A stretch of DNA of 64,000 bases from Candidatus Parcubacteria bacterium (GTDB lineage Bacteria > Patescibacteriota > Patescibacteriia > UBA1558 > GWA2-36-10): positions 8,832-72,831 of the forward strand of contig JABJNO010000010.1 of assembly GCA_018664825.1 (NCBI GenBank), in the 5' to 3' direction. Both the position numbers and the translations under genes were made by a program. Position 1 is the stretch's first letter. Each line of letters starts with the position of its first letter. Shown here piece after piece: positions 7,795 through 41,648 of this stretch. The notes beneath the pieces were generated by a model. That model had not been told where the DNA came from and did not search any database. It saw only the letters and a list, made by a program, of their open reading frames with translations.

Positions 7795-7818
7795 ATTTTT
7801 TTATTCATCCAAGTCTCC

Positions 7819-8157
7819 CTATAAATCTAAGATGACTTTTCCTTGTATTTTTCCTTCTCTTTTCAACTTACGCGCAGCACCGTTCAATCTTTGATCTATT
7901 TTTATATCTCCATCTACATATAATTCTTCAGGTAAATCCTCTGCTGCCGAATTTTCTAAATCCAGATCACCTTTTATAATAATACGATTATTTTTTCTAT
8001 CTATTTCTGCATTGGCCTTTGTCCAGTTTATAATATCTCCAAAACTTTTAATACCATTTGATCCCACTATCATTCGCCATAATTTTTCCATCAACTGATC
8101 AGCTTCAAACAAATTTTTCCATAAAACTATCATGGAAATACTAAAATCTTTTTTCAA
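7819..8157 (-). CDS. Hypothetical protein, short or truncated member (2 of 6) of the LRR-like paralog family
   Basis: C-terminal ...DLPEELYVDGDIKIDQRLNGAARKLKREGKIQGKVILDL matches the family C-terminal motif. It lacks the N-terminal Cys helix. Confidence 0.4.
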   Translation of the reverse strand: MKKDFSISMIVLWKNLFEADQLMEKLWRMIVGSNGIKSFGDIINWTKANAEIDRKNNRIIIKGDLDLENSAAEDLPEELYVDGDIKIDQRLNGAARKLKREGKIQGKVILDL

Positions 8158-8173
8158 TTTATTTATAACCTTG

Positions 8174-9483: not shown

Positions 9484-10145
9484 TATGGTGCTATTACTAG
9501 AACTTGTCCTTTTATTCGTCCTTGTTGTTTTAAATCATTTAATTCTTTCATATATCTTCTTTTCATGCTCAATTTTACATCACCATTGACCTGCATATCA
9601 TGAGGAAAATATATATTAGCCTTACTACCCAATTTTACTCCGCGTATATCCAGCTCATCCACCATCAACCTATCAGGCATCAAGGCTGTTTCTGCTCCAC
9701 TCAAATCTAAATTCCCAACTTGCAAATTATCTGGTAAAAAAACAGCGTCGCCCTTTACTATCTCAAAATTTCCCAAAACTACTATCCTGCGACCAACTGG
9801 GTCTATATCTGTATTTTCCATCAACCATTTGATAGCATCTTCACGATCTTTTATTTCATCATACTCACCATCTGGAGTGGCCGTACTGGATACTCTGGCA
9901 TTATTGGTTATAAGTAGAGAAAGATTGTCTATTACACCTTCAAAATCTAAGGCCTCAATCAATTCCAAAGTTTTACTGGTCATCTCTATCAATCTTTTGA
10001 CGTGCTTGGCTTTGTTTCTGGTGGATTTCAAATCTTTTAAATCATACTCCTTGGTTAGACTAAGATCCGCCTTAAAACCATCAAAAAACTTTTTTAAAAA
10101 TTCTAATTTTTTATATAACTTTCCACAAAAACTACTATTATACAT
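9483..10145 (-). CDS. Hypothetical protein, LRR-like repeat paralog 5 of 6
   Basis: MYNSSFCGKLYKKLEF N-terminus. C-terminal ...LNDLKQQGRIKGQVLVIAP. Confidence 0.45.
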   Translation of the reverse strand: MYNSSFCGKLYKKLEFLKKFFDGFKADLSLTKEYDLKDLKSTRNKAKHVKRLIEMTSKTLELIEALDFEGVIDNLSLLITNNARVSSTATPDGEYDEIKDREDAIKWLMENTDIDPVGRRIVVLGNFEIVKGDAVFLPDNLQVGNLDLSGAETALMPDRLMVDELDIRGVKLGSKANIYFPHDMQVNGDVKLSMKRRYMKELNDLKQQGRIKGQVLVIAP

Positions 10146-10185
10146 ATCTTTCAGGTTCTTATTGCTTGTTTACTAACCAGCATAA

Positions 10186-18508: not shown

Positions 18509-19514
18509 ATATTTCAAATGATTGGCGAAATCTTTCGTACATCTCTTCATCATAATCACCCATACTATAATACCTACCAATGATATAGATAGTATCCCCT
18601 ACCACAAAAATTTCTCCTTCTTCCATATCATTGCCTACTCGCAATGATAAAGACAAGGTGCGAAAATCTTTGAATTGGCCAAACTCAGAAAATACTACTT
18701 CCTGAATAGGGTGAGTGTCCATCGAATCTACCATCTCTTGCATTAGAATATCTGACTCTGGTATTTCCTCATCTTCAGGATATTTATAAAAATCTATAAA
18801 AAATGACACCTCATCATCATCCAAATCTACATAATAGGTATTAGCCTCCATGGTTGTGTCTCTTTGGACAAAACCAAAAACATAACTATCATGCAAGACC
18901 TTGGCAGGAAACTCTACCTTAAAATTTCCCTTTATCGAAGTAAATTCTTTCCATTCTATTTCTTGTTTTTTGACTTCTTCGGCAACTATTTTTTGTTTTG
19001 GTGCTTCAAAATTGTCAAAGGTACCAAAGTAGTTCAATAAATAAAAAATCATTGGTATAGATATCAAGACAGTCAAAATCAAGATAATCAGCCATGGATT
19101 TATTTTTTTATGGGCTACAGCCAGATGACTAGTATCGTCTGTTTTACTTTTGAGTAAATATATAGAATAGATTATAGAAAAAAGATATATCAAAACAATC
19201 CAAGCATCACCTATGGTATCAAATATTCCACCATGATTGATGATGACCGCTAGATAAAAAAGATAAATTACAAAACCAAAAAAATATACAATAGGCATCA
19301 CTAGATATTTTTTGTTTATCTTTTCTCTCAAAACATAAACTACTACCACTATTGATAACAAAAGCAAGACAATCTCTGGTAAGGTAGTAAAAAATAAAAC
19401 ATCATCCAATACTTCGTTGGTATAAATATATTCTACAGTAATACCCAACAAAAGATTGATAGTAGTAACAATTACCATCAGCCAAGTATAAGTTTTGAGT
19501 AGCGTATTTTTCAT
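18492..19514 (-). CDS. Hypothetical integral membrane protein (5 N-terminal TM helices plus C-terminal soluble domain)
   Basis: Hydrophobic N-terminal half. No recognisable catalytic motif. Confidence 0.45.
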   Translation of the reverse strand: MKNTLLKTYTWLMVIVTTINLLLGITVEYIYTNEVLDDVLFFTTLPEIVLLLLSIVVVVYVLREKINKKYLVMPIVYFFGFVIYLFYLAVIINHGGIFDTIGDAWIVLIYLFSIIYSIYLLKSKTDDTSHLAVAHKKINPWLIILILTVLISIPMIFYLLNYFGTFDNFEAPKQKIVAEEVKKQEIEWKEFTSIKGNFKVEFPAKVLHDSYVFGFVQRDTTMEANTYYVDLDDDEVSFFIDFYKYPEDEEIPESDILMQEMVDSMDTHPIQEVVFSEFGQFKDFRTLSLSLRVGNDMEEGEIFVVGDTIYIIGRYYSMGDYDEEMYERFRQSFEILKNPE

Positions 19515-19737
19515 AAGTTTATTTTAGCATTTTTTGGGGTATAAAAAAAGACTTGCCACTTTTTGTGCGGCCAAAAAGTAGCAGAAAAAGCCGCCGAGCA
19601 GAGCCAAGATTCACAGAATTTAGGACTTCGTCATCACTGATGGCACGAAACTCGCCTACAGCTCAAACAATCGCACCATCTCCTTCGGAATGTTCTTCCT
19701 TGTCTCTAAATTTCTAGTTCACCTTGTCTAAGCTCAG

Positions 19738-20302: not shown

Positions 20303-23300
20303 TTATCTATTAAATTTATGTTCGAATTGTATATCTATATTATAGTTAGAGACTACACCCAAATTCTGCCCTAAAGCTGTATAATTATTGGCTGAATCAG
20401 AAAATAAATTATCATATCCAGAGTCAAAAGAGAAATCATATTTATCTGTAATGTATGTATTAAATGTCCATTCTCCATTTTCTTTATGCCCTCTGATCAA
20501 ATTTGTATACGTACCATGTATTGAAGTTTTTAAATCACCAGAATTAAATTCAAGTCTTTCATCTTTATTAACATTTTTATCACTATACTGTATAATTCTA
20601 TCTTTATTATTACTTTCTGCCTCAGAAACTAAATTTCTTAATTTATCCTTATATTCACCAGATGCTTTTATTTCATCTATAATATAAGAATGCTCATTAT
20701 TTGATCTCACACTAATGTCACTAGGATTCAATGATAAAGAGTGGTCAAGAAAATCCGCAGAAGCTCGCTTACCGGTGGCCTGATAATAACCTACGCCTCC
20801 CACGAAATGAGATTTTATAGTTGCTGTTCCAAGAGGATTTAGCAGCCAAGCTCTTAAAGAGGCGTTTCCTGTTGGATCTACATAAACTACCGGATTATTA
20901 ACTGCGTAGGCATAAGAGTTTAATTCTTGCGGGTTCGCCAAAAGTACACCTGTATCTTTATTATACTCACCTGAGTCTAAAATATCAACCATTAACGGGT
21001 CAATAGATAAGAAATGCCCCGTCTCATTGTCATAGTACCTATTTACAAAATATTGTATACCCGTCTCTTCATCAACTTCTTTTCCGGTAAAGTCATATTC
21101 ATTACTCATATTTGTAACAATGTTTTCGTATGCTTTACTACCATATGGATAATAGTCTATTTGTTCAGCTACTGTGCCCGTATCATCTGTAAGTATAGAG
21201 CTAGAACCCAAATGATCTCCCAATAGATAATATGGATTATCATTGTTGTTTAAAGTAGCTAGTTTTATGTTTCCCAAATATACATGACTTTTAGTATTGT
21301 CTCCCAAATCTTTTTGGAAATATTTATCTACATACTTATCTTCTTTTATTCTACGCCATTCCCAGTGTCCTCCTCCACCCATAGGAGCAGCCATACCTCT
21401 CATCATGATTGGCTCTTCGTGTGGATCTGGTGGGATAAACACATAATCTTCAGTGTATTTGAGCATTCTTTGATTGTTGTGATCATACTTATAATAAGTA
21501 CTATTTTCAGTAGCTATATCATAAGTACTCTTTAGTCTACTGCGGTGATCCCAGGCAAACTTGGTGATGCCACCATTTCTAGTCATATTACCAGCATCAT
21601 CGTACATAAATGTCCTAGTATCATAACCAGACAATTGATGAGGATTGTCATTGTCGTAGTCCATAACGCCAAGATTGCTATTGTAGGTCATATTGCCCAC
21701 AGCATCATACTGATATGTGCGTGTATAATCATCGGTCGGATGAGTGACATAAGAAACTGTACTAGTGCCCAGACGATTTAGATCGTCGTATTGATAATCT
21801 ACTGTCTTGGCCAAGTCAGTATCAGAAGCGTCTACAATCTGCATGATGTTACCGATATTATCATAATCATAGTGCATGTCTTGTAGAGTAGTTGTGCTTT
21901 GTACTGATACCAGATCTGTAAGTCGGAAATTTTCCAATGGATCATAAGTATAATCTGTAATTACGCCATTGGCTCGTTCGTAGTGAGTCATCTGGCCATT
22001 TTGATTGTACTCTATACTGTCTGACAAGATAGCACCTCCTGTGCCTTTATCCAAAAGCACCTCGTCTACTTGCCCCACGCCATTGAATGCGTAGGTGACG
22101 ACCCATCCATTTGGATAAGTAATTTCTTTGAGATTACCACCAAGGTTGTAGTCATACTTCATGACAAAACTTTCGTTTTCTATGGTAGTGGTCGCTGTCC
22201 TTAGTCTACCCAAGGTGTCATAGTCATAGGCCTTGCTATTACCTCCTCCATAATCTGCAAATGACAATTGTCCAACGTCATCGTTTTGATCATAGGTATA
22301 GCTTATTTGATTTGCTCCTGAAAGCTTTTCATACAAAACTCTATTGAGATCATCATAAACATATGATATGGCATCGCCTTTAAAACTAGCTTCTGTCAAA
22401 ACATTACCATTTTTGTCGTGAGTGTAGTTTATCTTTTCTGGAGTAGCGACAGATGACTTATGGACCATGTCCTGCCAGTCTAGATTGTCCAAAACATCAT
22501 AGTGGAAATTACGGATGTTGCCCTGACTGTCTGTGATTTTTTCTAGCTTGTTGGTCAAGGTATAATCATAGCCAGTGGTATAAGTACTAACGCCATTGTA
22601 TTCTTTGACTTCTACTAGATTGCCATATGCATCCTTGGTCAAATCTTTTTGAATACCATTGGCATCGGTGATAGTAGTTTTGAAGCCATCGTATTCGTAG
22701 CTAGTCACTCCTGTTGGAGTAGACTCTGACAATACCCTGTCCAAAGCATCATATGTATATGTCTTGGCTGGCTTGGTCAGATTTGGACTACTGTATGAAA
22801 TACTATTCGTAATATATGGCAAAGACTGATGAACTACTCTACCCTGCGAATCATACAACGTGTCTACTGTAGTATATTGACCAGTTGTAGCTGTGTTGGC
22901 TTTTTTCTGGATTACTCTATCTAGTCCATCATAGTATTCACGGCTAGTACTAAAATTTGATGCGTCAAAATAATCTTTTACCTCTACATAACGAGGTAAA
23001 GTACTATCTTGGTAGCTTATTTCTTGTTTTTTGACCAAGGTGGCTGGAGTGTCAGCGTCTGAAATCCAAACTTCTTTGGTCCTACCAAAAGCGTCAAATC
23101 TATTGACGGTCTTGGCTCCTGTTGGAGATGTAGTTGTTGCTACCTGACTGTTGAATAGATTGTATTCTGTATAGGTTGCTTGGTTGAGATCATTGGTAGT
23201 GGTAGCTGGATATAGATTATGACTATCATAAGCTATGGTTGTAGTAGCTTTTTCAGGGCTAATTTCTTTGTTTACCAGGCCATAACTATTGAACTCTCTA

Positions 23301-26300
23301 TCTATCTCTACACCATCTGTAATGTAGTCTTCTTTGGTAAGATTTACTTTATCTACAGAGCCATGAGCCTGCTTGTTGTAATACAAGTCCTGCTCTTTGC
23401 TGTCTACTGTGTCTGAGATAGTCCTAGTCTTTGGAGCAGACAAAATGTGTTTAGTGGTATTTTGAGCGTATTCATAATCAGTGTCTTTTTCGTCACCTGA
23501 TAAGATGTTGGTTATTTGTCCTGTATCTATATTGGCCACTACTTTACCCAAATTTGCCTCCGTATCTAAATTACCATTTATAAAATTATAATAATTTTCT
23601 TTAGCCACACTAGTTTCATAATATGGTTCTTGGGTATTATGATAATAATTATAAATCGAGGTACCGCTACGAGCTACATTTGATATCCTAAACTCATCCA
23701 TAGAGAACAATCCTGCATCATTGCATGATTCTTTGTGACAAGCCAAAACCAAATGAGTGTTTACAACAGGGTCCAGGGTCAGGGTCACTGGCGCTTGCCC
23801 AGCCAAATCACCATCTATATAAATATAAGCATTATTGGTATCCATCACAAAAGCAAAATGTTGCCATTGTCCTAATTTTATCAAACCAGTATCTGATATA
23901 ACTGTCCAAGTATATTTATCCGCACTAGAAGTAAATACTATATATGAATTATCATTAGAATATTCAACATAAAAGCCATGATCATAGCTATCTTTGTTAC
24001 CCAAGGGTCTACCTGCTATAGCCTTGGCTCCGTTATTTTTTATCCACCCCTCTATACTAAATGCCCCAGCTCCCAAACCACCGATGTTTGTATCCAAACG
24101 CATTGAACCCCCTGTGGATCTATAGGATCCATCAACTTCCTCATTGAAACCAACGTCAATGGCACTTATATTTTCTTCTGTTAAATCATAAGCTGCATTT
24201 CCTTGGGCGTTATCTTTTTTTTCTGCGGTATCCCGAGGACCATCCATGTGGTATAGGGCTATAGTACTAGCATCAGAAGAGTACTCTGCCAAGGGCCCTT
24301 CTTCAAGTAAGTGAATTTGTGTATTTATATTTTCATCAAGATAAGTAAATTTTCTATCACCACTCAAATTGTATGTTAGCCAATTATTATTTTGTTTACT
24401 TAGCAAATTATCACCTGAGTCATATTTACTATTTGATTTTAATCTACCATGTAAATACAAGTTATCATCTTTGGCAATATGATATTCATTTATAGTTTTC
24501 TGCATTTCAGCTCCAACAGAATTTTTGATAGAATAATCAAATTCACCTAGACTATAATAACTTGGATTGGTGGTACCTACGATTGTATCTGCTTCTACAC
24601 TAATACGCCCATCAGCTCCGTTGCCACCATTATTTGAATAACTACCTACTCCACCATCGCCTCCGTAAGCATGAATAAGGTTGGTACCCAAGTCAGCTGT
24701 TTCTATAACTCTTATATTAATACTGCCACCAGAGCCTCCTCCAGCTCCTCCGGTATAATGCCCTGCATTTCCATCCCCATCTCCTCCATCTATACCATTG
24801 GCATTTATTTCTCCATTTACTATCAAACTATTAGCAAAAATCTGAACAATGCCTCCACCGGCACCACCATGAGCTCCATTGGCAGGTAAAGAGTAGCCAG
24901 AGCCTCCTCCGCCAGAACCAGCAAAAATAGGATCCAACTCTTGATTTCCATAAGTCACTCCACCAATGCCATAGGGAGCAGAAACTTGTCCGTCTTGTCC
25001 ATCGGCAACGTGCCCGGCACCGCCACCGCCTCCTGTTCTCTCTAAATTTACATATCCTCCACCGCCTCCTGCACCAGGACCACCTCCCGGTTGACCATAA
25101 AGGCCAGCTGCACCACCTCCAGAATAACCTTTGCCTTCGGCAGTTAAAATACCATCAATCGTAACTTGTCCTTGTACTTTGATTATTACACCCGACTCTA
25201 CTGTGATAGTGTGTCCGGATTGGATGTGCATAGAAGTAAAATTTTTATTAGTAGTCCAAGTTGTAGAAGTTGTAGAAATAAAAACTCCATCTGAACCATC
25301 TCCCATATCTACATCTGGCATAGCTTGTCCTGTTTTATTCTGGGCTTTAGCAAAGCCAAAAACATCTTTTATTTTGTCAGATGGATAACTCTCTGCTTTA
25401 CCGTCTGAATATTGATATTCTTTTCCTATCCACTCATCCATTCCATTATCAACCACCACTTCTTTGACTGTATAAATATTAAAAGGAAGCTCTGGATTTA
25501 GTAGATTTCCATTTTCATCTTTTTCGTTGGCCGAATAATCATAATATACACGTAGCTTGGCGCCCGATTGATAATTTACCTGTTCCAAAATATCCAATTT
25601 TTCTCCCTCACCATAATAAACAGTGTCAGAGGCTGATCCCCAAGAATGCATTACATCTTGCGCTTGATCTCCATTGAAATCTGCAATAGCTACTGGTATT
25701 GAATTATTATAATAACTAATACTGCTTATCCAGCCGGTATCAAATATCGTTTGATCTAATAAATATATAGTCCCTTTAGAATTCCAATCTGTGCCAGAAT
25801 TCCAAGTATCTTTAGAAAAAGATCCTACATCAAAAATTCCATCACCATCAACATCCATGATGTAACTAACATTTAATCCAGAGCTAGTATTTACTACATA
25901 ATGACTTGGTCTATTAGGAGCAGTAAAAACACTAGAATTATATAATAAACTACCTGTATTCAAATAAACTGCTTCGCCCTCATCTATTATTGGTACGCCG
26001 CCTGCCTCATAAGAATAAATACAATAATAATTATAATATACATCTAATAAACCATCATTGTTTACATCGGAAAATCCAAATGGATCACCTCCATATTTTA
26101 AACAATCACTAGAAGCCATGTCCACAGAGACATTATAATCTAAGCCTATATCCCAATTCCCTGTAATGATATTTCGCATATAAACATCCACTTCTGAATC
26201 ATGATTGGCTGGATGATGATTATAAACAATGTCATCATAACCATCTTTGTTCATATCTTGAAACATTACAGTGTTCATAAGTGCTCCACTGTTACCAGCA

Positions 26301-27910
26301 CTCTGAAATAAAGATACTGGTAAAGTATGAACAATCGGAGAATCCCAACCACTCCCATTATTATAATAAATATTTGTATCTGTCACCATATCTATCAAAT
26401 GATCTCCATTTAATTCGGCAAATGATACTGGCACCGAATATCTTATGCCAATACCAGCACAAGTAAAGCCACTGCCAAAACTTTCTGAAAATGCAGCAGA
26501 ACTCGTCCAACCACCGTCTCCGTCATTGAGATAAACATCTGTACTTAAATTTGTATTGGAACAATTTATACGTATATAATCTGTAAAACTGTCAGAATTC
26601 AAATCAATAAACATATCACGCTTATTGGTGGTAACACTCAATCCCTCGCCAAGATAATAGCTATTTGGCAAAGTATAGCCAGTGCCCTCTGCATAAGTAG
26701 TCGGCTGATAACTATATTCAAAATCTACTTGATCTTTTACAGAAAAATTACTACCTTCATAATATTTTGGTACTATAGAATCAAGTAAGTATTTATTCTG
26801 ATTAGTATTTAAAGATAAGTCTAAATCATAAGAAGTAAACAAGCTACCATCAATTTTGATATCTATTTTATCTACTAAATATTTTGTTTGAACTGCAAAA
26901 CCAGTTTCATAAGAAAGATTCAACAAATTATTTTCTACTGGAGTACCATGAGCAAAGGGCTCAAAATTTACTGTAAAAATCCCATCTGTGGTGCCGTATC
27001 CAGTATAAGTAATTTTCTTTGGATAAATTTCCCCTGAATCTTTATAGTATTCATACTTCACATAATTATCATTGGTATCTCTCACTTCTTCGAGCATCCA
27101 TTTATAAACTTGACTGGTATTACCAGGATTATCTTGTCTAGCCAGAGCAGAGCTTCCATAGCTATAAACCGTGCCCATTTTATCAGTAACAATCCACTTA
27201 TTAGCACTATTAAATTCAATCTTAGAAAAATCATTTTCCACTAATTTTCCATATGTACCATAACCATTTCCATCTACACTAATAGGCTCCAATCTACTGC
27301 CATTTAGTAAAAAATAATTTTGACTATACATATTATCAACACCCGTCCTATTTTCTCTACTAACACTAGGCATTGATACTTCCCAACCAAAACCAAGCAT
27401 AGAACCAATGTTTGTCTGCCGATGATTATACTGCAGAGCAACGCTTGGTTGTAGACCGTTTCTACCTTGGGGAATTTGAATAGGATAACCATAACTAAAT
27501 GCACCTGTAAATTCATCTACATTGTATTGACCTGTTTGGTCTTTTGGTTTTAAGCCAGAGTTGTCCCGTCCAGCGTACATATCCAAAGGAACTTCATCTC
27601 CGGAAGTCAACAGTGCCATTGGATCTTCAATCGGCGCTTCAATTGTTGGATCCTCTACTATTGGATCTACTACAATCGGATCATCTATTATTGGTTCTTT
27701 AATAATCTCCGGCACTTGCTTTATTTCCTCCGGAATAGGCAAGGCAAGTTCCTGAACTCCCTCCACAGCCTGCATTTGTTCTACAAGTGCTTCTACTTGC
27801 ACTTCCCTGGCTTGAACAGACAGAGTCGGTGCTAGCGAAGTAAATACCAAACTACAAATCAAAAATCTGATTGTGATTTGATAAAATCTTGATTTTTTAG
27901 TTACTTTCAT
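20303..27910 (-). CDS. Giant secreted Rhs/YD-repeat polymorphic toxin (SpvB-like N-domain, FG-GAP/VCBS repeats, Gly-rich region, LamG-like domain, YD repeats, Rhs core, variable C-terminal domain)
   Basis: Signal peptide MKVTKKSRFYQITIRFLICSLVFTSLAPTLSVQA. SpvB-like segment IQIPQGRNGLQPSVALQYNHRQTNIGSMLGFGWEV. FG-GAP-like VNNDGLLD / DVDGDGIFD / DFNGDQAQD. Many YD repeats (YTYDALDRVLSE, YEYDGF, YDYTLTNKLEKITDSQGN). Rhs core YLLGDHLGSSSILTDDTG...YYPYGS...FTGKEVDEETGIQYFVNRYYDNETGHFLSIDPL...NPVVYVDPTGN, followed by a C-terminal extension of about 220 aa. Confidence 0.85.
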   Translation of the reverse strand: MKVTKKSRFYQITIRFLICSLVFTSLAPTLSVQAREVQVEALVEQMQAVEGVQELALPIPEEIKQVPEIIKEPIIDDPIVVDPIVEDPTIEAPIEDPMALLTSGDEVPLDMYAGRDNSGLKPKDQTGQYNVDEFTGAFSYGYPIQIPQGRNGLQPSVALQYNHRQTNIGSMLGFGWEVSMPSVSRENRTGVDNMYSQNYFLLNGSRLEPISVDGNGYGTYGKLVENDFSKIEFNSANKWIVTDKMGTVYSYGSSALARQDNPGNTSQVYKWMLEEVRDTNDNYVKYEYYKDSGEIYPKKITYTGYGTTDGIFTVNFEPFAHGTPVENNLLNLSYETGFAVQTKYLVDKIDIKIDGSLFTSYDLDLSLNTNQNKYLLDSIVPKYYEGSNFSVKDQVDFEYSYQPTTYAEGTGYTLPNSYYLGEGLSVTTNKRDMFIDLNSDSFTDYIRINCSNTNLSTDVYLNDGDGGWTSSAAFSESFGSGFTCAGIGIRYSVPVSFAELNGDHLIDMVTDTNIYYNNGSGWDSPIVHTLPVSLFQSAGNSGALMNTVMFQDMNKDGYDDIVYNHHPANHDSEVDVYMRNIITGNWDIGLDYNVSVDMASSDCLKYGGDPFGFSDVNNDGLLDVYYNYYCIYSYEAGGVPIIDEGEAVYLNTGSLLYNSSVFTAPNRPSHYVVNTSSGLNVSYIMDVDGDGIFDVGSFSKDTWNSGTDWNSKGTIYLLDQTIFDTGWISSISYYNNSIPVAIADFNGDQAQDVMHSWGSASDTVYYGEGEKLDILEQVNYQSGAKLRVYYDYSANEKDENGNLLNPELPFNIYTVKEVVVDNGMDEWIGKEYQYSDGKAESYPSDKIKDVFGFAKAQNKTGQAMPDVDMGDGSDGVFISTTSTTWTTNKNFTSMHIQSGHTITVESGVIIKVQGQVTIDGILTAEGKGYSGGGAAGLYGQPGGGPGAGGGGGYVNLERTGGGGGAGHVADGQDGQVSAPYGIGGVTYGNQELDPIFAGSGGGGSGYSLPANGAHGGAGGGIVQIFANSLIVNGEINANGIDGGDGDGNAGHYTGGAGGGSGGSINIRVIETADLGTNLIHAYGGDGGVGSYSNNGGNGADGRISVEADTIVGTTNPSYYSLGEFDYSIKNSVGAEMQKTINEYHIAKDDNLYLHGRLKSNSKYDSGDNLLSKQNNNWLTYNLSGDRKFTYLDENINTQIHLLEEGPLAEYSSDASTIALYHMDGPRDTAEKKDNAQGNAAYDLTEENISAIDVGFNEEVDGSYRSTGGSMRLDTNIGGLGAGAFSIEGWIKNNGAKAIAGRPLGNKDSYDHGFYVEYSNDNSYIVFTSSADKYTWTVISDTGLIKLGQWQHFAFVMDTNNAYIYIDGDLAGQAPVTLTLDPVVNTHLVLACHKESCNDAGLFSMDEFRISNVARSGTSIYNYYHNTQEPYYETSVAKENYYNFINGNLDTEANLGKVVANIDTGQITNILSGDEKDTDYEYAQNTTKHILSAPKTRTISDTVDSKEQDLYYNKQAHGSVDKVNLTKEDYITDGVEIDREFNSYGLVNKEISPEKATTTIAYDSHNLYPATTTNDLNQATYTEYNLFNSQVATTTSPTGAKTVNRFDAFGRTKEVWISDADTPATLVKKQEISYQDSTLPRYVEVKDYFDASNFSTSREYYDGLDRVIQKKANTATTGQYTTVDTLYDSQGRVVHQSLPYITNSISYSSPNLTKPAKTYTYDALDRVLSESTPTGVTSYEYDGFKTTITDANGIQKDLTKDAYGNLVEVKEYNGVSTYTTGYDYTLTNKLEKITDSQGNIRNFHYDVLDNLDWQDMVHKSSVATPEKINYTHDKNGNVLTEASFKGDAISYVYDDLNRVLYEKLSGANQISYTYDQNDDVGQLSFADYGGGNSKAYDYDTLGRLRTATTTIENESFVMKYDYNLGGNLKEITYPNGWVVTYAFNGVGQVDEVLLDKGTGGAILSDSIEYNQNGQMTHYERANGVITDYTYDPLENFRLTDLVSVQSTTTLQDMHYDYDNIGNIMQIVDASDTDLAKTVDYQYDDLNRLGTSTVSYVTHPTDDYTRTYQYDAVGNMTYNSNLGVMDYDNDNPHQLSGYDTRTFMYDDAGNMTRNGGITKFAWDHRSRLKSTYDIATENSTYYKYDHNNQRMLKYTEDYVFIPPDPHEEPIMMRGMAAPMGGGGHWEWRRIKEDKYVDKYFQKDLGDNTKSHVYLGNIKLATLNNNDNPYYLLGDHLGSSSILTDDTGTVAEQIDYYPYGSKAYENIVTNMSNEYDFTGKEVDEETGIQYFVNRYYDNETGHFLSIDPLMVDILDSGEYNKDTGVLLANPQELNSYAYAVNNPVVYVDPTGNASLRAWLLNPLGTATIKSHFVGGVGYYQATGKRASADFLDHSLSLNPSDISVRSNNEHSYIIDEIKASGEYKDKLRNLVSEAESNNKDRIIQYSDKNVNKDERLEFNSGDLKTSIHGTYTNLIRGHKENGEWTFNTYITDKYDFSFDSGYDNLFSDSANNYTALGQNLGVVSNYNIDIQFEHKFNR

Positions 27911-27950: not shown

Positions 27951-28523
27951 TTAATTGTTTAGAAGTAATTCAACATTTTTCTTTGAAAATGATATCAATG
28001 ATAACACAACTTCATCTATGGTATCTGTTGAAAATCTTTTTTTACCCGTAATTTCTGTATCAACCAACTTTTCGTTATCAATATAATAATACCCATCAAA
28101 ACCAAGTTCTACTCTTGTATAATCAAGTGTCCCTGTATTATTAGGATCTGGAAAATATTCTTCCGTTTCGTGTATCATTATTAATTTTTTGTCTAAAAAA
28201 TAATATTCATAAGTAACTACACCATAAGAAAAGCCTAGTTTCTCTACAATCTTATGAATCCCCTCATTTTTAAAATGACCAGTCAATTGCCCACCTCCAT
28301 CAGTCATATGATCCAAAAACTCTTCATTATTCAATATTTTTATTTCATAATTTTCTTCTTGATCCATCAAATCAACCTTATCTTGAATACCTTTAGCTAT
28401 GGTCTCTTGTGAATTATTTTCTACCACATACTCCGTGTTATTATTTCTAAAAATAACAAAAAATATTGAAGCTAAAATTAATATAGCTGCGAGCAATATG
28501 ATTTTTTTGAATTTATTTTTCAT
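27951..28523 (-). CDS. Hypothetical membrane-anchored small protein; candidate immunity protein for the Rhs-core/M15 toxin
   Basis: Starts 3 nt after the stop of the 380-aa toxin, same strand. N-terminal TM anchor IILLAAILILASIFFVIF with an extracytoplasmic remainder. Confidence 0.4.
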   Translation of the reverse strand: MKNKFKKIILLAAILILASIFFVIFRNNNTEYVVENNSQETIAKGIQDKVDLMDQEENYEIKILNNEEFLDHMTDGGGQLTGHFKNEGIHKIVEKLGFSYGVVTYEYYFLDKKLIMIHETEEYFPDPNNTGTLDYTRVELGFDGYYYIDNEKLVDTEITGKKRFSTDTIDEVVLSLISFSKKNVELLLNN

Positions 28524-28525
28524 AA

Positions 28526-29668
28526 TTATTGATTATGTGAATTATATAAATCTTGCCAACTCTCACCAAATGTCATCTGAAAATGTGGATAGTCCATATA
28601 TGGTGCAGTCCAGTTCCCTCCCCACTCAAATCCTTGATCAATCGCTATATTGGCAATATCCTGACTAATTGGTTCCCACTTTGGCTGACCACCTTCCATC
28701 ACCACTACATCTATAGCTCTTCCATAGTTATGATAACTTTGCCCTCCCTTGGCATTTGTAACCCATGGTCCCGTAGGTGGGCTCGTCCTGCTTTGCCAAT
28801 ATAACTCATTTTGATATTCAATAGAACGATAACCCTGCGTCACTCTTAACTGTATATCAAACTGAGCCTCTGTATCATTAATAAAATTGATTGCCGGTTG
28901 TTGTACGCGTGTATCAAGCTGTTTTATTCTTTCGTTTGATACAGCGTCCCAAGTGGCATCATTTTGTATAGAATTATTGCCCGTTTGGCCACCAGAATGA
29001 TTTGGTGTTGATACTACTGTCTGCGCTTGATTGGTAATATTTGGTTTATTAAAAATCCTTGAAGTAAAAAATGAAATAGAATCAACAAATGAATTCCAAA
29101 TTGAACTGATACTAAAATTACCAGTTGGATCTATAAATCTTACAGGATTATTCCTGGCATAGCTATAGCTATTTAGCTGCTGGGGGTCTGTCAAAAAACT
29201 ATTCGGTGAAGATATGAGCAACGGGTCAATACTGACAAATCTAGCTGTATCACTGTCATAATATCTAGCACCAAAATATTGGAGGCTCGTTTCGCTATCT
29301 AGCTCCTTGCCACCAAATTTATAATAATTCGAAATAGCCGAACTTTGATTAATTATACCGCCAAAATCCTCATAATCATTTATCTCTACCACTTGCCCGG
29401 TTTCATTTGTAATGATAGCAGTAGAATCCAAATGATCATTTAGATTAAAATAAATTTCTTGCTCGTTTTCTATAGTAGAAATTTTTTGATCACCCAGATA
29501 AATGTGTAATTTTGTATTTCCTGATTCGTTTACTTCAAAATACTGATCTACATATTTATCTTTATGGATTACTTGTTCCACGTGTAGCCCGGCAGCGATT
29601 ACAACGCCGGGCAACACAAATGTAAAGGAACTGAGCAAAGTTATGCTCCCAAAAATGCTTTTCTTCAT
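28526..29668 (-). CDS. Secreted Rhs-core protein with a C-terminal peptidase M15 (VanY/CwlK-like peptidoglycan hydrolase) toxin domain
   Basis: Signal peptide. Rhs core homologous to the giant protein (IHKDKYVDQYFEVN...YLGDQKIS...YYKFGGKELDSETSLQYFGARYYDSDTARFVSIDPL...NPVRFIDPTGN). C-terminus has SYHNYGRAIDV and EWGGNW...DYPHFQ, which are the M15 zinc-peptidase motifs. Confidence 0.7.
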   Translation of the reverse strand: MKKSIFGSITLLSSFTFVLPGVVIAAGLHVEQVIHKDKYVDQYFEVNESGNTKLHIYLGDQKISTIENEQEIYFNLNDHLDSTAIITNETGQVVEINDYEDFGGIINQSSAISNYYKFGGKELDSETSLQYFGARYYDSDTARFVSIDPLLISSPNSFLTDPQQLNSYSYARNNPVRFIDPTGNFSISSIWNSFVDSISFFTSRIFNKPNITNQAQTVVSTPNHSGGQTGNNSIQNDATWDAVSNERIKQLDTRVQQPAINFINDTEAQFDIQLRVTQGYRSIEYQNELYWQSRTSPPTGPWVTNAKGGQSYHNYGRAIDVVVMEGGQPKWEPISQDIANIAIDQGFEWGGNWTAPYMDYPHFQMTFGESWQDLYNSHNQ

Positions 29669-29812
29669 ACATTTTTAACCTTACTTTAACTAATAAAAAA
29701 CCCAACATAATGCTGGGGTTATAAAATCATAACGAACACAAAAATCATCGGGAATACTTTATGTTCAATATAAATTTGTATTAATGAATTATCCATATAT
29801 TTAATTATGATT

Positions 29813-30232
29813 TTATTTGATACTATAATGCTCTAAAATACTATTAACTAATTTTTCTTTTTGCTCCCACTTGAGTCCTTGTTCAACAACTTTTTCTTCT
29901 ATTTGCAAATGAACTATTTCATGCAATATCGTTTTTACTATCTCATCGGTCTCTCTCTGTATGTTTATATATATTTTATTTGGTAATTTATAACTACCAA
30001 ACGCACCAAACTTAGATAAATATACTTGATATTTTTGATTATCCAGAATTTCTTCATACTTTTTTATCTCACCTTCTAAATCACTAACCAGTTTTTTATA
30101 ATCTAGCTTTTTATACTTATCCAAAACTGACAAATTATAATAAATCTTATTTTTATCTAAAAAATTTTTACACCTTATTGTATTAACAATTGAGACAAAA
30201 TCATTAAATTTATTATATTTACAGACTATCAT
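29813..30232 (-). CDS. Hypothetical small protein with an HExxH motif
   Basis: ILHEIVHLQ is a possible zinc-metallopeptidase-like motif. No other recognisable features. Confidence 0.3.
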   Translation of the reverse strand: MIVCKYNKFNDFVSIVNTIRCKNFLDKNKIYYNLSVLDKYKKLDYKKLVSDLEGEIKKYEEILDNQKYQVYLSKFGAFGSYKLPNKIYINIQRETDEIVKTILHEIVHLQIEEKVVEQGLKWEQKEKLVNSILEHYSIK

Positions 30233-30386: not shown

Positions 30387-33179
30387 TTATTTCTTATCAA
30401 CTACTTCCGGTTGACCATCATAAAGCGGAATCACAAACTGGAATTTAGAGCCCTTTTCTTTTCCTTCGCTCTCTGCCCAGACATTACCACCATGCTCTTT
30501 GATAATCTTTTGAGCAATAAACAATCCCAAACCAGAACCACCTGTATGTATCTGAGCTACTCCACTACCACGGACAAATTTCCTAAACAATCCCTTTGCC
30601 TCTATCGGATCTATACCAATGCCCGTATCCTCTACTACAAAGGTTAGCTCTTTGTCATCAAACTCAGTATAAACAGTGACCGATCCCTTTGGTGTATATT
30701 TGATAGAATTATCAACCAAGTTAAGGACTACCTCCCTAAGCTTGTCACTATCAGCAAAAACTTCTGGTGGTTTTGCTTTTGATTTTTTATAAGTCAATTT
30801 CAAACCTTTTTGTTCCGCTTGATTTTTTAGCTCGGTGACTACACTTTCTATCATATCCGCAATTTGTAACGGATGTTTTTCAAGCTTTAGTCTACCTGAT
30901 TCAATCCTAGATACATTCAAAAAGACATTTATCAATCTAGCTAGACGAGAGGCACTCTCAAACAAATCGCTAATAACTTTTCTAATATTATCTGGTACTT
31001 TACCAAAATCACCATCCAACATCATAGACAGGTAGCCCTTCAACGCAGAAATAGGAGTACGCAACTGATGAGAAGCAATAGACAAAAACTCTGATTTGGC
31101 CTTGTCTAGCTCACGCAAACGCATATTGGCTTCTTGGAGATCGAGGTTTGCCTTTTGCACTGTATTGTAGAGCTTGAGGTTACGAGATACGATACCTACC
31201 TGATTGGTAAGCGCTCCCATCATCTCTATATCAGAAGACGATATCTTGGCTCTTGGTATTGGCATCAGAAAATGAATAACACCAATAATCTTGGCCTCTG
31301 AAAATATCGGTACAGCAACCGAGGTTTTTACCTTTAGTTTTTCTTGGATTTGATCGATTATTTCTTTGGCAACTGGTGGTGACAAAAAGTCAGACATCTT
31401 GTCAGAAAAATTTATCTTACCAGATAGCGCACTATCTGCCCCTAGATTGTAGCCTTGCTCTAGTCTTGTTTGAAAATCGCGAGGATCTTTTTTGACCAAC
31501 TCGAGGGCTTCTCTGGTTGCTTTATTATTGGTAATGGCTCCTACTTTTAGAGCGTTTTTTTCTTTGTCTATAAAACTCAAAATACCACCTACATAGCCAA
31601 GCTCCGAAGCAATACTATCGGCAATCATCTGATTGACTTTGTTTAAATCTAGTGTGCGACTGATCATATTGGTGACAACTTGGATAGTTGTCAAAGATTT
31701 ATTTTTTTCTTCTAGGGCTACATTGGCTACCTTGAGGCTTTTTGTCCTTTCGTCTACTTTACGTTGCAATTCTTTGTTGAGCTGTTCTACCTCTTCGTAT
31801 AGTTTTGATTTTTCAATTGCAATAGCTACTTGAGGAATAAACACTTTAAAGAAATCAACATCTTGATCATTATACAAATCTCCAGAGTGCTTGGCGCTGA
31901 TCAAAAAAATTGCATTTAGTCGATCTTGTTCTACCACTGGGATGACTACCTCCGCTTTTAGAGATTCTGCCTCTTGAGCAAAACTGCCCATCTCTTTATA
32001 ACGCTCTGAATTTGTATCGTGATTATCTCTCTCTCTAATAAGCTCCTCTGTAATAACAAATTCTTTTGATTTTTTAAGATATTTTACAAAACCTTTACTT
32101 AAAGAAAACCTTGCCTTATTTTTTCCTGAACTAACTGCTAAATCAAAATTTTCTTTGGTCGGTACAAAAACAGATATTTCTTTTATTTTTAGTTTATTGA
32201 CCAATAGGTCCGTGGCTCTTTGTAATAGCTTCTGTAAATCAATTTCTCGAGCAATTACATTACCTACTTCCTGGAGAACTTCCTGATAGTCAACTTTATC
32301 TTTATAAAATATCTTGTCAGTAATCTTTGCCCAGACTCTTTTGACGGGATCTAGGAAAATCACCACAATGATTGAATTGACTATATATGTAATCACTTTA
32401 CTACTTTGACTATTACCACCAATTGTATTACCAACTAAAATAACCGACAAAGCAAAAAAACTAGCAACAGCACCAACTAAAACAGCGTACAGAATAGAGC
32501 GGGTAAGAATAAGCCGAATGTTCATCAGACGGTATCTAACAATAGCATAAGTAATGGCAATAGCATAAAAACCAACTAAATAATTGCCAATTGGATATAT
32601 TTGAGAAAACTGAGGTAAAAAATTAAAAAATCCACCACCAAATCCTACAAACGCTGAATATAAAACATACTTTATCTGTTGACCTTTGGCGCCTGTGAAT
32701 TTCTTTTTAGCTTTAAATAATATAAAAACTGCAAAAATAGCTATAAATAAAAAATATACAGGAAAAAGAATATACAATGGACCTGGATCTATCCAATACT
32801 GAAACTCAAATACTGATTTTAAACCTTTTTTAAAAAGTGGCGTTAAACTTAACGCAGACAATACTATAGATATAGCATAACAAATATTAACTAATTTTTT
32901 ATACTTAATCTTTTTCTCAACTAAAGTTAATACGAAATCTAAGAATAAAATTGGTAAAAAAATACCTGCTATATCTAAAATAACTTGAGATAAATATGCA
33001 TAATTATAACTATCAAAAAAAGTAACTCCAAATAAGCCAATGCTCCACAGGGCAATCGAAAAACTTGTTATAGCCCAAAGCTTATTTAATCTAAAATTTT
33101 TATTTTTAAAATATACAAAAGCTGCTAAGATAAAACTTAGAATAGCTGTCAATAAACTAGAGAAAGCAAATCCATTCAT
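30387..33179 (-). CDS. Sensor histidine kinase with an N-terminal 7TM domain and GAF-like sensor region
   Basis: H-box SHQLRTPISALKGY. HATPase_c VEDTGIGID...GGSGLGLFIAQKIIKEHGG. Polytopic N-terminus. 930 aa. No adjacent response regulator. Confidence 0.85.
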   Translation of the reverse strand: MNGFAFSSLLTAILSFILAAFVYFKNKNFRLNKLWAITSFSIALWSIGLFGVTFFDSYNYAYLSQVILDIAGIFLPILFLDFVLTLVEKKIKYKKLVNICYAISIVLSALSLTPLFKKGLKSVFEFQYWIDPGPLYILFPVYFLFIAIFAVFILFKAKKKFTGAKGQQIKYVLYSAFVGFGGGFFNFLPQFSQIYPIGNYLVGFYAIAITYAIVRYRLMNIRLILTRSILYAVLVGAVASFFALSVILVGNTIGGNSQSSKVITYIVNSIIVVIFLDPVKRVWAKITDKIFYKDKVDYQEVLQEVGNVIAREIDLQKLLQRATDLLVNKLKIKEISVFVPTKENFDLAVSSGKNKARFSLSKGFVKYLKKSKEFVITEELIRERDNHDTNSERYKEMGSFAQEAESLKAEVVIPVVEQDRLNAIFLISAKHSGDLYNDQDVDFFKVFIPQVAIAIEKSKLYEEVEQLNKELQRKVDERTKSLKVANVALEEKNKSLTTIQVVTNMISRTLDLNKVNQMIADSIASELGYVGGILSFIDKEKNALKVGAITNNKATREALELVKKDPRDFQTRLEQGYNLGADSALSGKINFSDKMSDFLSPPVAKEIIDQIQEKLKVKTSVAVPIFSEAKIIGVIHFLMPIPRAKISSSDIEMMGALTNQVGIVSRNLKLYNTVQKANLDLQEANMRLRELDKAKSEFLSIASHQLRTPISALKGYLSMMLDGDFGKVPDNIRKVISDLFESASRLARLINVFLNVSRIESGRLKLEKHPLQIADMIESVVTELKNQAEQKGLKLTYKKSKAKPPEVFADSDKLREVVLNLVDNSIKYTPKGSVTVYTEFDDKELTFVVEDTGIGIDPIEAKGLFRKFVRGSGVAQIHTGGSGLGLFIAQKIIKEHGGNVWAESEGKEKGSKFQFVIPLYDGQPEVVDKK

Positions 33180-37622: not shown

Positions 37623-38606
37623 TTATACAGTAAACTCTCCAATTAAATTTTGCTTCATTACCTTATTGAAATCCGCCAATTCTTTAAAATTGGCCAATGC
37701 CCACATAGTTTTTACAACCGCAGCACTCCACGTACACCCAGATATAACTACAGCCCCCTCAATAGACAATATCCCCTGATAATTATACAAAACAACTGGC
37801 AATTTCCAACTGGCAATTTGCTTTTGCTTATTTTGGTCAATTGACTGGGCAGAAGTCTTGATGATGACACCTTGGTATTTTTTAAAAATTTCTCTATCTA
37901 CACTCCATTCAACTCCTGGAAAATCTTCCAATATCAAAATTTTACTATTTATCTTTTTAAAAATTTCAAATTGTTTTGTCGAATGTTTCAAATCTTTTTT
38001 TATATTTATACCAAATCCAACCTTACCCCAATAAGCATCATTGAAACTAGCAAAAATATTGGTATCATCATGATAATTTTTTACTGCCTGTACAGCTGAG
38101 ATCAACCTAGTACCAGACATTATAGCTGGTCCGGGTAATTTACTGTCCGTAATCTGCAAGGCATTTATCAAGTTTGAACGAAGCCCCAGGCCACCATGCT
38201 TATCTTTTAATTTATTTATTTTTTCCTTTTTGTTCAAAAAGTCTGTTCCACTTATTTGAGAACAGGTCAAGATAATACTCTTTTTTATATTTTGAAATAT
38301 AAACCCCAGGACCAAAGCTGTATTGATAAGTTGACCAGTCTTGGAAACCACTATAAATCCATCCGCATTACCCAGATTATTACTTATCTTATTGGCTATT
38401 TTTTCCCAAATTTGAGGAGTAATTTCTTGATCTTCACCACTGATAAATATTGGCTCAATATCTGCTAAGATGCTCAATTCTGGCATCTGCCTTAGCCAAT
38501 GATCAACATCTAAGCTGTCTTGCACGGCTAAAAACTTAGCCTCTTTATCCAATAATAAAGTTCCACCTGCCAACAATAATATTATTTTTTTCTTTTTTCT
38601 AGCCAT
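37623..38606 (-). CDS. Possible L-asparaginase-family protein
   Basis: N-terminal ILLLAGGTL and an internal GTD resemble asparaginase TGGTIAG/HGTDT. The length fits type I asparaginase. Weak. Confidence 0.3.
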   Translation of the reverse strand: MARKKKKIILLLAGGTLLLDKEAKFLAVQDSLDVDHWLRQMPELSILADIEPIFISGEDQEITPQIWEKIANKISNNLGNADGFIVVSKTGQLINTALVLGFIFQNIKKSIILTCSQISGTDFLNKKEKINKLKDKHGGLGLRSNLINALQITDSKLPGPAIMSGTRLISAVQAVKNYHDDTNIFASFNDAYWGKVGFGINIKKDLKHSTKQFEIFKKINSKILILEDFPGVEWSVDREIFKKYQGVIIKTSAQSIDQNKQKQIASWKLPVVLYNYQGILSIEGAVVISGCTWSAAVVKTMWALANFKELADFNKVMKQNLIGEFTV

Positions 38607-39303
38607 TCTTCAATTTGTCTTTATTGGAAAAAATTAAATAAAAAGCCACAAAATTCATTGGTAAGGTAAATAATGGTCCTAGCCATTCATATTTATAAAT
38701 TCCAAAATGACATAAAAATAAATCAAAATATGAACCAAATATCAACCCCAAAACTATAACCATTAAAAGGATCAAAATTTGTTGCTTAAAAATTCCTTCT
38801 ATATTCTTATATTTGTAAATTAAATTAAATATGGAAAAAATCATTAGAGAAATAAAATACAAAGAATACAAAATGTATAAAAATCTATTATGCTTTAAAT
38901 AGAATATATTGTTAACCTGGTCCCTGTAATATTCAATGACTAAGGTATTATTTAAAGTTGAAAAAATAAAAAATAAGGTCAACATTAAAATTATATAATA
39001 AAATATTGGGTTAATTTTTTTAATTTTATAAGGAAAATACACTGAAAAAAATAATAAAGAAATGGCTATACCGATGGCAAAAATATATATTATTTTAGCG
39101 GACCACTCTCCAAAATAGCCATCCATTGTCATACCAAAAAATAATCCCATGGCCCATAAAAAATTAAAAAATGTTAATAAACTAAAGTATAAATTAACCT
39201 TATTGCGCCATCCTTGAAAAATAATCAATACAGCCATTATCAAATTAACTAGAGCGGCAATTACTAAAGAAAAATTTTGAAATTGTAAAATAGAAATAGT
39301 CAT
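38599..39303 (-). CDS. Polytopic membrane protein, histidine-kinase-N-terminal-7TM-like, no output domain
   Basis: Seven hydrophobic segments with a pattern resembling the N-terminus of the 930-aa kinase. Confidence 0.4.
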   Translation of the reverse strand: MTISILQFQNFSLVIAALVNLIMAVLIIFQGWRNKVNLYFSLLTFFNFLWAMGLFFGMTMDGYFGEWSAKIIYIFAIGIAISLLFFSVYFPYKIKKINPIFYYIILMLTLFFIFSTLNNTLVIEYYRDQVNNIFYLKHNRFLYILYSLYFISLMIFSIFNLIYKYKNIEGIFKQQILILLMVIVLGLIFGSYFDLFLCHFGIYKYEWLGPLFTLPMNFVAFYLIFSNKDKLKNG

Positions 39304-41647: not shown

Positions 41648-41648
41648 G

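Follow-up and report, generated by a model that had tools for sequence, protein, structure and literature searches.

Work on Rhs proteins has centred on secretion systems of type VI (T6SS), the ABC (Tc) toxins and WapA, and work on colicin M (ColM) on proteobacterial bacteriocins, the two fields having been studied apart. WapA, a Sec-exported Rhs toxin of Gram-positive bacteria without a T6SS, carries nuclease tips on a header with a wall-binding domain. Another class of polymorphic toxins is headed by a signal peptide, an SpvB domain, an integrin-like propeller and RHS repeats, the TcdB/TcaC-type header (Zhang et al. 2012, PMC3482391), and this header is known in toxins that have no TcA partner (PMC3482391). 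PaeM and syringacin M are ColM-like bacteriocins that degrade lipid II (PMC5821083, PMC8469651), and ColM and PaeM also cleave the lipid II of Gram-positive bacteria (PMC8469651). Recently, tips labelled "Novel Colicin M-like" were reported on headers of the cystatin-like lipoprotein or 'broken-hairpin' kind, where the immunity proteins are BamE-like (Burroughs et al. 2025, PMC12419801). Here, we explored a locus that touches on all of these systems, in a 64-kb stretch of DNA (64,000 nucleotides, hereafter the window) from a 183,689-bp contig of a Candidatus Parcubacteria metagenome-assembled genome (MAG), which belongs to the Candidate Phyla Radiation (CPR). Its central gene encodes a protein of 2535 amino acids (aa), identical to NCBI MBT4849547.1, which is annotated as "hypothetical protein" and has HON36_01700, 01710 and 01715 as gene neighbours.

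The locus joins, in Parcubacteria, an Rhs cage, a C-terminal tip with a predicted colicin M fold, an uncatalogued candidate immunity family and a putatively peptidoglycan-directed mini-Rhs. The four genes are co-directional, in the order 380-aa mini-Rhs, 190-aa transmembrane protein, 2535-aa Rhs protein and 183-aa transmembrane protein, and form an apparent operon, bracketed by terminator-like hairpins at 29717-29701 and 19583-19554 that were located by a consensus scan only. We propose, as a reading that is probable although far from certain, that this is a cell-wall-directed polymorphic toxin operon made up of a Sec-exported Rhs cage with a lipid II-targeting tip, a surface-anchored immunity protein and their mini-Rhs companions. 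The kind of system and the header class are already known, and colicin M-fold polymorphic tips have recently been mentioned on other headers (PMC12419801). What appears to be new is the tip family, for which there is no Pfam model and which has a DxYD-only signature, its immunity family, and the placement of these on Rhs cages of Patescibacteria; our literature search turned up no study of Rhs toxins from CPR bacteria.

A preliminary description of this DNA, made from the letters alone, had taken the large gene for that of a secreted Rhs/YD polymorphic toxin, and this identification holds: the open reading frame (ORF) is uninterrupted, its domains are matched by known families, its orthologues carry other tips, its own tip recurs at the C termini of other proteins, and a linked gene family lies downstream. 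The domain order is signal peptide, Pro/acidic linker, SpvB domain, six-loop FG-GAP propeller, Gly-rich domain, LamG domain, YD shell, Rhs core and tip (Table 1). This is largely the order that had been described; the "composite" N terminus, however, is the TcdB/TcaC-type header already on record and not a new arrangement (PMC3482391). Judged by its sequence, then, the scaffold belongs to the known TcdB/TcaC-type class of Rhs polymorphic toxins.

The evidence differs from module to module. Residues 9-30 hold the 15-mers of highest hydrophobicity in the entire protein and follow a K/R-rich start, with a putative cleavage site at VQA↓R that was placed without a dedicated predictor; the signal-peptide feature is retained in all three orthologues described below. 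The Pro-rich linker is present as described. The SpvB domain matches PF03534 (E-value 3.2e-15; 56.6 bits, cut-off 22) and, in searches of Protein Data Bank (PDB) sequences, residues 35-212 of YenB (E 1e-12), TcdB1 (E 7e-8) and SpvB itself. The FG-GAP_3 match of the propeller is below its cut-off (E 6.7e-5; 23.9 against 26.9 bits), but the FG-GAP/VCBS-like repeats are borne out by six D-x-N-x-D-x3-D loops at about residues 436, 499, 552, 615, 686 and 744, spaced by 53-71 aa and conserved among four orthologues as motifs at 552, 615 and 686 and as invariant D/N columns at 436, 501 and 744, and by the match of the N-terminal profile to the propellers of integrin alpha-4 and alpha-V (E 1e-3 to 7e-3). 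The Gly-rich tract is also real but longer than the 150 aa or so first estimated, at about 208 aa (907-1114). It resembles NCBIfam AgmC_N (E 9e-10, with 38 bits far under the cut-off of 275) and the Gly_rich_2 (PF21722) region of another protein, P0016 (BLASTP E 4e-17, a value obtained with composition correction off and subject to the caveat of low complexity). The LamG-like block is well above the cut-off for PF13385 (E 9.7e-19; 68.4 against 27.6 bits). Both the Gly-rich and the LamG insertions are present in relatives as well, and they are probably adhesion modules.

The YD shell matches RHS_repeat (PF05593, E 5e-11) and, in four stretches, NF041261; among PDB sequences, it finds TccC2 (E 1e-15), together with the Rhs cores of T6SS effectors and Tse5. 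Its YD motifs lie between residues 1477 and 2140, where the strict aromatic-x-aromatic-[DN] pattern occurs 15 times and a looser one up to about 25 times; the earlier count had been more than 15 repeats. The canonical Rhs core reads …FLSIDPL…NPVVYVDPTG, has both Asp motifs intact and scores 60.7 bits against the TIGR03696 cut-off of 32.5. In possessing SpvB, propeller, YD shell, core and variable tip, the protein thus resembles both TcdB/TcaC-type Rhs toxins and the YenB/YenC and TcdB1/TccC2 cocoons. Unlike the cocoons, it is a single polypeptide, with Gly-rich and LamG modules between propeller and shell and no TcA nearby; and unlike the TcB-TcC systems, it comes from a CPR bacterium and carries an antibacterial-type tip with an immunity gene.

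A single scan of species-representative genomes, with the whole protein as the tblastn query, yielded three orthologues: one in Ca. Komeilibacteria (L009, 64% identity), one in an uncultured MAG (L010, 66%) and one in a Patescibacteria-group MAG (L011, 50%). The matches begin at residues 1-5 and end at 2349-2391, at exactly 2349 in L010 and at 2385-2391 in the other two. In L009 and L010, in which the end of the core was located, the sequence that follows NPVI.VDPDG is unrelated to the tip of the window protein, and the small downstream ORFs differ in the two orthologues whose contigs continue. Given that the tip is replaced past the core in orthologues and is found on other scaffolds, the C terminus is polymorphic. 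One of the orthologous loci also contains a start-less orphan Rhs-core cassette. Within the window itself, hidden Markov model (HMM) and motif scans found neither the orphan C-terminal/immunity cassettes that the preliminary description had suggested looking for nor, apart from the two Rhs genes, any second tip, immunity gene or copy of the Rhs core, and no DNA-level repeats that could serve as recombination substrates were found between the two Rhs-core regions.

The tip had been taken for a domain of about 220 aa with no recognisable motif. Both points need correction: it spans 187 aa (2349-2535), and it contains half of the colicin M signature, D-x-Y-D, within a colicin M-like fold. The suggestion that it might be a novel toxin domain is accordingly sustained in part, the tip being a candidate new family but one inside a known toxin fold. 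Searches of Pfam, NCBIfam and PDB sequences gave no significant match for it, and a word-indexed homologue search found one match for the tip (for the 183-aa ORF, the self-match only); the family surfaced in an exhaustive HMMER search of representatives clustered at 50% identity, in which it comprises at least 148 cluster representatives at E<=1e-3. In these proteins the domain is always C-terminal, with a median of 5 residues between its end and that of the protein. Its carriers are mostly proteins with Rhs repeats or Rhs stubs, namely full-length Rhs proteins of 1875-3258 aa and Rhs-core stubs, along with one Peptidase_C39 protein, and all members with a taxon name belong to CPR bacteria (Parcubacteria, Uhrbacteria and Falkowbacteria).

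Several of these loci have features of their own. In a Candidatus Uhrbacteria genome (L012, GCA_016209325.1, 4001-6325), a 535-aa protein (P0040) combines the tip with a Peptidase_C39 domain at its N terminus, and a 234-aa member of the immunity family discussed below lies downstream. On a Parcubacteria-like contig (L001, 8457-11243), the tip sits on a 248-aa stub with a GTG start that has only the Rhs core, preceded by a 423-aa mini-Rhs with a signal peptide and an Ntox44 tip and by a 95-aa Cys-rich ORF. The same order, Ntox44 and then the ColM-like tip, recurs in Falkowbacteria (L013), adjoining two serine recombinase genes. A distant member (E 4.6e-4) from the Hadza gut metagenome (L014, 4001-10872) is carried by a 2096-aa YD-shell protein, just upstream of which lies a second Rhs, with a PT-HINT domain.

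The link to colicin M comes from structure and from profile comparison. An AlphaFold2 model of the tip, built from a 40-sequence alignment, is of high quality (predicted local distance difference test, pLDDT, 94; predicted template-modelling score, pTM, 0.88). In a Foldseek search of the PDB, its top match is the C-terminal domain (CTD) of BtpeA (9jdi_A; probability 1.00, TMq 0.54, E 1.7e-3), followed by PaeM (4g75/4g76; probability 0.99) and syringacin M (4fzl; 0.89), every other fold being at a probability of 0.3 or less; a search of viral structures gave no match. We then compared the profile of the tip family with an alignment of six ColM catalytic domains, assembled from a protein search and two plasmid records, the ColM sequence having been verified against the PDB. 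By hhalign, the two profiles align with a score of 33.0 (E 6.5e-5, probability 64%), colinearly across positions 4-147 of the 151 of the ColM catalytic domain. All 81 controls scored below this value, whether the profile was reversed (13.1), its columns shuffled (40 shuffles, maximum 17.3) or its blocks shuffled with the motifs kept (40 shuffles, maximum 23.4). Against a single ColM sequence, the motif alone was aligned, at a probability of 6%.

In this alignment, ENGEWTFNTYITDKYDF of the tip is placed on ANGSWTYNGVVRSYDDKYDF of ColM, such that D2489 pairs with D226, Y2491 with Y228 and D2492 with D229. Of these, D226 is essential in ColM and binds a divalent cation (PMC8469651). Across 128 family members, D141 (the equivalent of D2489) is conserved in 99%, Y143 in 96%, and D111 and P48 in 97% each, and the second D of D-x-Y-D is kept in 75% and replaced by N in 23%. 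We therefore regard the tip, on the strength of its modelled fold and its motif, as a distant colicin M-fold domain in which one half of the active-site signature, D-x-Y-D, is retained, and as a candidate new family. We claim that it has in common with colicin M the fold and a core of metal-binding Asp and Tyr, and that it probably catalyses a related reaction. Like ColM, PaeM, syringacin M and the pectocins, it has an NG-W beta-hairpin followed by D-K-Y-D-F. It differs from them in an extra N-terminal helical hairpin, in invariant residues of its own (D111, P48 and H42-S43), in the replacement of H235-R236, in its apparent delivery by an Rhs cage rather than by receptor-binding and translocation domains through FhuA/TonB, and in that its named carriers are Patescibacteria and not Proteobacteria. 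BtpeA, a T6SS effector of Bacteroides fragilis (PDB 9jdi), is alike in being an antibacterial effector tip with a cognate immunity protein, in addition to being the best fold match; its CTD is, however, only 12% identical, lacks any sequence-level match and is delivered by the T6SS.

A further line of evidence is the linkage of the tip to the 183-aa ORF. That such an ORF, anchored by a transmembrane helix, follows the Rhs gene had been noticed, and its presence and size are as described, although the gap is 13 and not 14 nt. Its placement in the position of an immunity gene is supported by comparison: the gene next downstream of the tip belongs to its family in 8 of the 9 loci examined (the window, L001, L004, L006, L007, L008, L012 and L013), and the pairing holds on three kinds of scaffold, full Rhs proteins, Rhs-core stubs and the Peptidase_C39 protein. 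The exception is the distant gut member, L014, which has a different downstream protein with two transmembrane segments, one at each end, a situation reminiscent of ColM bacteriocins, for which multiple types of immunity are on record (PMC5821083). The downstream homologues are 171-234 aa long and 18-30% identical to the window ORF in the alignments made, and the family HMM retrieves the members in L013 (E 7e-41) and L012 (E 4e-22). The family shares an N-terminal transmembrane helix with preceding Lys residues, two invariant Cys and a beta-rich domain; the AlphaFold2 model of the 183-aa protein (pLDDT 77) has a helix at residues 5-33 and beta strands thereafter. Searches of Pfam, NCBIfam and PDB sequences gave no significant match, and neither did Foldseek against the PDB, in which the best hit was to WD40 blades (E 0.055) and BtpiA, the immunity chain of 9jdi, was not retrieved at significance. 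Thus, neither a structural domain for the tip nor a housekeeping family for the downstream ORF emerged, and on its conserved position the 183-aa protein is a candidate for the cognate immunity protein of the tip, representing a new family. In Cmi, an immunity protein against ColM, a transmembrane anchor is combined with a periplasmic domain, and a disulfide is essential (PMC8469651); the likeness of the 183-aa family to it is one of topology alone, that is, a membrane-anchored, outward-facing domain with Cys residues.

The remaining pair of genes in the operon consists of the mini-Rhs and the 190-aa transmembrane ORF. The mini-Rhs scores 74.5 bits with TIGR03696, and its tip matches M15_4 (E 2.5e-13) and VanY (E 6e-10); its shell strand and core share 47% identity with residues 2188-2354 of the large Rhs protein. 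Judging from these matches, it would be a second, peptidoglycan-directed toxin of the operon, and the 190-aa ORF, from its position, is probably the corresponding immunity protein; a transmembrane-anchored ORF occupies the equivalent position in all three orthologous loci. Indeed, a mini-Rhs and such an ORF precede the large Rhs gene in 4 of 4 loci (27951-29668 in the window, 2914-4733 in L009, 2974-4567 in L010 and 2723-4626 in L011), the tip being M15/VanY in the window and unassigned in L010, whereas L009 and L011 both have CHAP. An Rhs core without a shell is unusual on a secreted toxin. The company of a VanY-like tip is itself a point of likeness to the colicin M-fold tips of Burroughs et al., which are interchangeable and occur alongside VanY-like tips; those tips, however, are not described on Rhs headers such as the one here, and the model of the immunity protein here combines a transmembrane helix with a beta-rich domain (PMC12419801).

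Table 1. Features of the toxin operon in the window (residue numbers refer to the 2535-aa Rhs protein)
Feature	Residues	Window coordinates	Strand	Details
Terminator-like hairpin upstream of the mini-Rhs, at the start of the four-gene unit		29701..29717	-	7-bp stem, then T-run
Mini-Rhs, 380 aa		28526..29668	-	Signal peptide, last shell strand, Rhs core, Peptidase_M15_4/VanY tip (NCBIfam/Pfam)
Transmembrane-anchored ORF, 190 aa		27951..28523	-	N-terminal hydrophobic helix; no significant Pfam match
Large Rhs ORF, 2535 aa		20303-27910	-	No interruption in reading frame
Sec-type signal peptide (putative)	1-34 (...SVQA↓REV)	27809..27910	-	K/R-rich n-region and hydrophobic core
Pro/acidic-rich linker	57-97	27620..27742	-	20% Pro, 27% D+E
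SpvB/TcB-N-terminal domain	134-293	27032..27511	-	Pfam PF03534
FG-GAP/integrin-like beta-propeller	~422-760	25631..26647	-	Six Ca-loop-like D-x-N-x-D-x3-D motifs
Glycine-rich domain	907-1114	24569..25192	-	33% Gly
Laminin_G_3/concanavalin-like lectin domain	1273-1419	23654..24094	-	Pfam PF13385
YD/Rhs repeat shell	~1440-2252	21155..23593	-	RHS_repeat, YD motifs
Rhs-associated core, both Asp motifs (…RYYDNETGHFLSIDPL…NPVVYVDPTG)	2253-2348	20867..21154	-	TIGR03696
C-terminal toxin domain (candidate)	2349-2535	20306..20866	-	Colicin M fold (modelled), 187 aa
D-K-Y-D-F motif	2489-2493	20432..20446	-	hhalign to ColM D226-K-Y228-D229-F (to F230)
Cognate immunity candidate ORF, 183 aa		19738-20289	-	N-terminal transmembrane anchor
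Terminator-like hairpin at the operon end		19554..19583	-	12-bp stem, then T-run

Taken together, these features suggest the following mode of action. The 2535-aa protein would be exported by Sec and either displayed at the surface or released, and its propeller, Gly-rich and LamG modules would bind the target. By analogy with TcC and Rhs proteins, the Rhs core would cut off the last 187 residues and encage them in the YD shell. Once released, the tip would cleave lipid II, or a similar precursor linked to undecaprenyl-pyrophosphate (C55-PP), at the outer face of the target membrane, which would block both wall synthesis and recycling of the carrier lipid; acting there, the tip would need no passage across the cytoplasmic membrane. 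The 183-aa protein would be held in the membrane of the producer by its N-terminal anchor, with the disulfide-containing beta-rich domain outside, and would neutralise the toxin, presumably by binding it, where the producer's own lipid II is exposed. Such a membrane-anchored, outward topology fits the site at which a lipid II-directed toxin must be blocked, and the mini-Rhs M15/VanY gene would supply the second toxin, directed at peptidoglycan. That the producer has its own undecaprenyl-phosphate cycle follows from the presence of BacA/UppP among the genes of the window (1532-2278, E 1e-57). The arrangement is paralleled by TelC, an LXG lipid II phosphatase that likewise acts outside the membrane and is countered by a membrane-anchored immunity protein, although its fold differs from that of the tip (PMC5821083).

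Obviously, several observations speak against this scenario. Of the D-x-Y-D-x5-H-R signature, the tip lacks the H235-R236 pair, Gly-Tyr being aligned there instead. In ColM, H235A and R236A each leave less than 2% of the activity (PMC8469651), and PmnH is thought to be inactivated by an R-to-K change (PMC8469651). The chemistry or the substrate may thus differ from that of ColM, and, with the H-R half missing, we do not claim membership in PF14859 (Colicin_M) for the tip; this model matched neither the tip nor any of 40 scanned members of its family, even with the threshold relaxed to E<=1-10. HMMER against PDB sequences found no relative of the tip, the ColM, PaeM and PsyM chains included; the profile-profile probability is just 64%, and the TM-scores to PaeM and syringacin M are modest (0.35-0.39). 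On the immunity side, the 183-aa protein has no detectable relation to Cmi (YebF-like, PF13995), PmiA, BmiA or any solved fold. Finally, no delivery partner or receptor was identified, and export, autocleavage, toxicity and neutralisation are all predictions, drawn from sequence, models and analogy.

The loss of the H-R pair gives most weight to the alternative that the tip has the colicin M fold but another job, cleaving a polyprenyl-(pyro)phosphate precursor of teichoic acid, S-layer glycan or capsule, or merely binding and sequestering lipid II. That pair is needed for the activity of ColM (PMC8469651), the near-invariant D111, P48 and H42-S43 of the tip family have no counterpart in ColM, and the catalytically dead pectocin M1 still lyses cells from the periplasm (PMC5821083). 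The most conserved positions of the family, however, are precisely the metal-binding Asp and the D-x-Y-D core, and an external, membrane-anchored immunity protein together with a peptidoglycan-directed partner in the operon fit a lipid II or cell-wall target. We consider such another job unlikely, while giving it more credence than any of the alternatives that follow.

A different question is who the victim would be. The same molecule might be aimed not at competing kin but at the host or prey of the producer, causing lysis or leakage of nutrients. The window comes from a Parcubacteria MAG, all named carriers of the tip family are likewise CPR bacteria (Parcubacteria, Uhrbacteria and Falkowbacteria), and both toxins of the operon would act on the wall from its outer side. 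An episymbiotic life and a reduced genome are general among CPR bacteria, which fits a weapon turned on a host. By contrast, tip swapping among close orthologues and a tightly linked immunity gene are the signature of discrimination between kin and competitors; the two roles can coexist, though, and we see the host/prey role as improbable, a shade less credible than a colicin M fold put to another job. An elaborate version of it would have the CPR episymbiont use a TcA-independent, TcB-TcC-like cage as a device for attacking its host: the LamG and Gly-rich modules would bind a receptor on the host surface, contact with which would open the propeller gate, a lipid II-cleaving tip that works with two Asp and a Tyr but no His-Arg would be released, the mini-Rhs peptidase would aid passage through the wall, and lysis or leakage of the host would feed the producer, the tip and immunity families being largely inventions of Patescibacteria. 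This chain of steps is speculative, and we hold it to be more doubtful still than the host/prey role in its general form.

Far less probable is that the protein serves as TcB-TcC in an ABC (Tc) toxin, dependent on a TcA pore and directed at a eukaryotic target. Its SpvB domain, propeller and TcC-like shell do match YenB, TcdB1 and TccC2. Nevertheless, no TcA-sized gene is present in the 64-kb window, in which the next largest ORF encodes a 930-aa histidine kinase, and no TcA was found in the window or among the called genes flanking L004 and L006-L008, the rest of the genome not having been searched. The Rhs protein carries its own Sec signal peptide, the fold of its tip is antibacterial, a dedicated immunity gene implies that the tip is toxic to the bacterium itself, and headers of this class are known in polymorphic toxins that lack TcA (PMC3482391). 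Equally improbable is a surface adhesin or structural YD protein without toxic function, followed by an unrelated membrane protein, since the LamG, FG-GAP and Gly-rich modules are indeed typical of adhesins but the Rhs core is intact, orthologues have other tips in its place, the tip-ORF pair moves together on unrelated scaffolds, and the near-invariant Asp and Tyr of the tip form an enzyme-like pattern.

If the lipid II-directed activity of the tip proves true, the colicin M fold would gain a large metagenomic family, of no fewer than 148 clusters at 50% identity, and the different second half of its active site would bear on the catalytic mechanism of colicin M, which is still unknown. Ultra-small CPR bacteria would be seen to devote about 10 kb to wall-directed weaponry, which would offer a concrete way into the study of their fights with neighbours or their exploitation of hosts. 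Polymorphic toxins in general would be seen no differently.

The toxin operon is set among housekeeping genes, including those for an aminoacyl-tRNA synthetase, phosphoglycerate kinase (PGK), enolase and two copies of cofactor-independent phosphoglycerate mutase (iPGM), along with histidine kinases. Just past the hairpin at the operon end, a gene (18492-19514, - strand) encodes a multi-pass membrane protein of 340 aa whose C-terminal domain is soluble and which has no Pfam match; it was considered as a third component of the toxin-immunity unit and rejected, as it lies beyond the terminator-like hairpin and is dissimilar to the third gene of L004. On the other side, between a histidine kinase gene and the operon, from which a terminator-like hairpin separates it, lies a 139-aa ORF with an HEIVH (HExxH) motif and faint matches to SprT-like and DUF6782 metallopeptidases (29813-30232, - strand). 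Paralogous HisKA_7TM sensors are encoded near the toxin locus (30387-33179, 38599-39303 and 39376-40764, - strand), one a complete 930-aa kinase with GAF domains and the others shorter forms with 7TM only or 7TM plus GAF, and the same HisKA_7TM set stands beside the toxin cassettes of the related genome L001 (11334-12696 and 18877-20747).

Further from the operon, the G+C content rises to 0.50-0.52 at 13001-15000, compared with about 0.35 elsewhere, over the gene for a 481-aa pyridoxal phosphate (PLP)-dependent decarboxylase (13663-15108), which is overlapped by a 346-aa antisense ORF; it is also elevated, at 0.42-0.44, at 16000-18000, and both stretches may have been acquired horizontally. 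Five or six co-directional ORFs of 112-232 aa occupy 7243-10863 (- strand), and 0 of the five scanned has a Pfam match. In the interval 41646-42389 (- strand), Rfam recognises three tRNAs and ARAGORN two; the one absent from ARAGORN (41852-41947) is 96 nt long, which suggests a long variable arm or an insertion, and ARAGORN labels 41646-41724 as a tRNA-Phe with the unusual anticodon AAA. The two iPGM genes are full-length tandem paralogues (525 and 521 aa; 2768-5911, - strand) that adjoin the enolase gene and lie near that for PGK.

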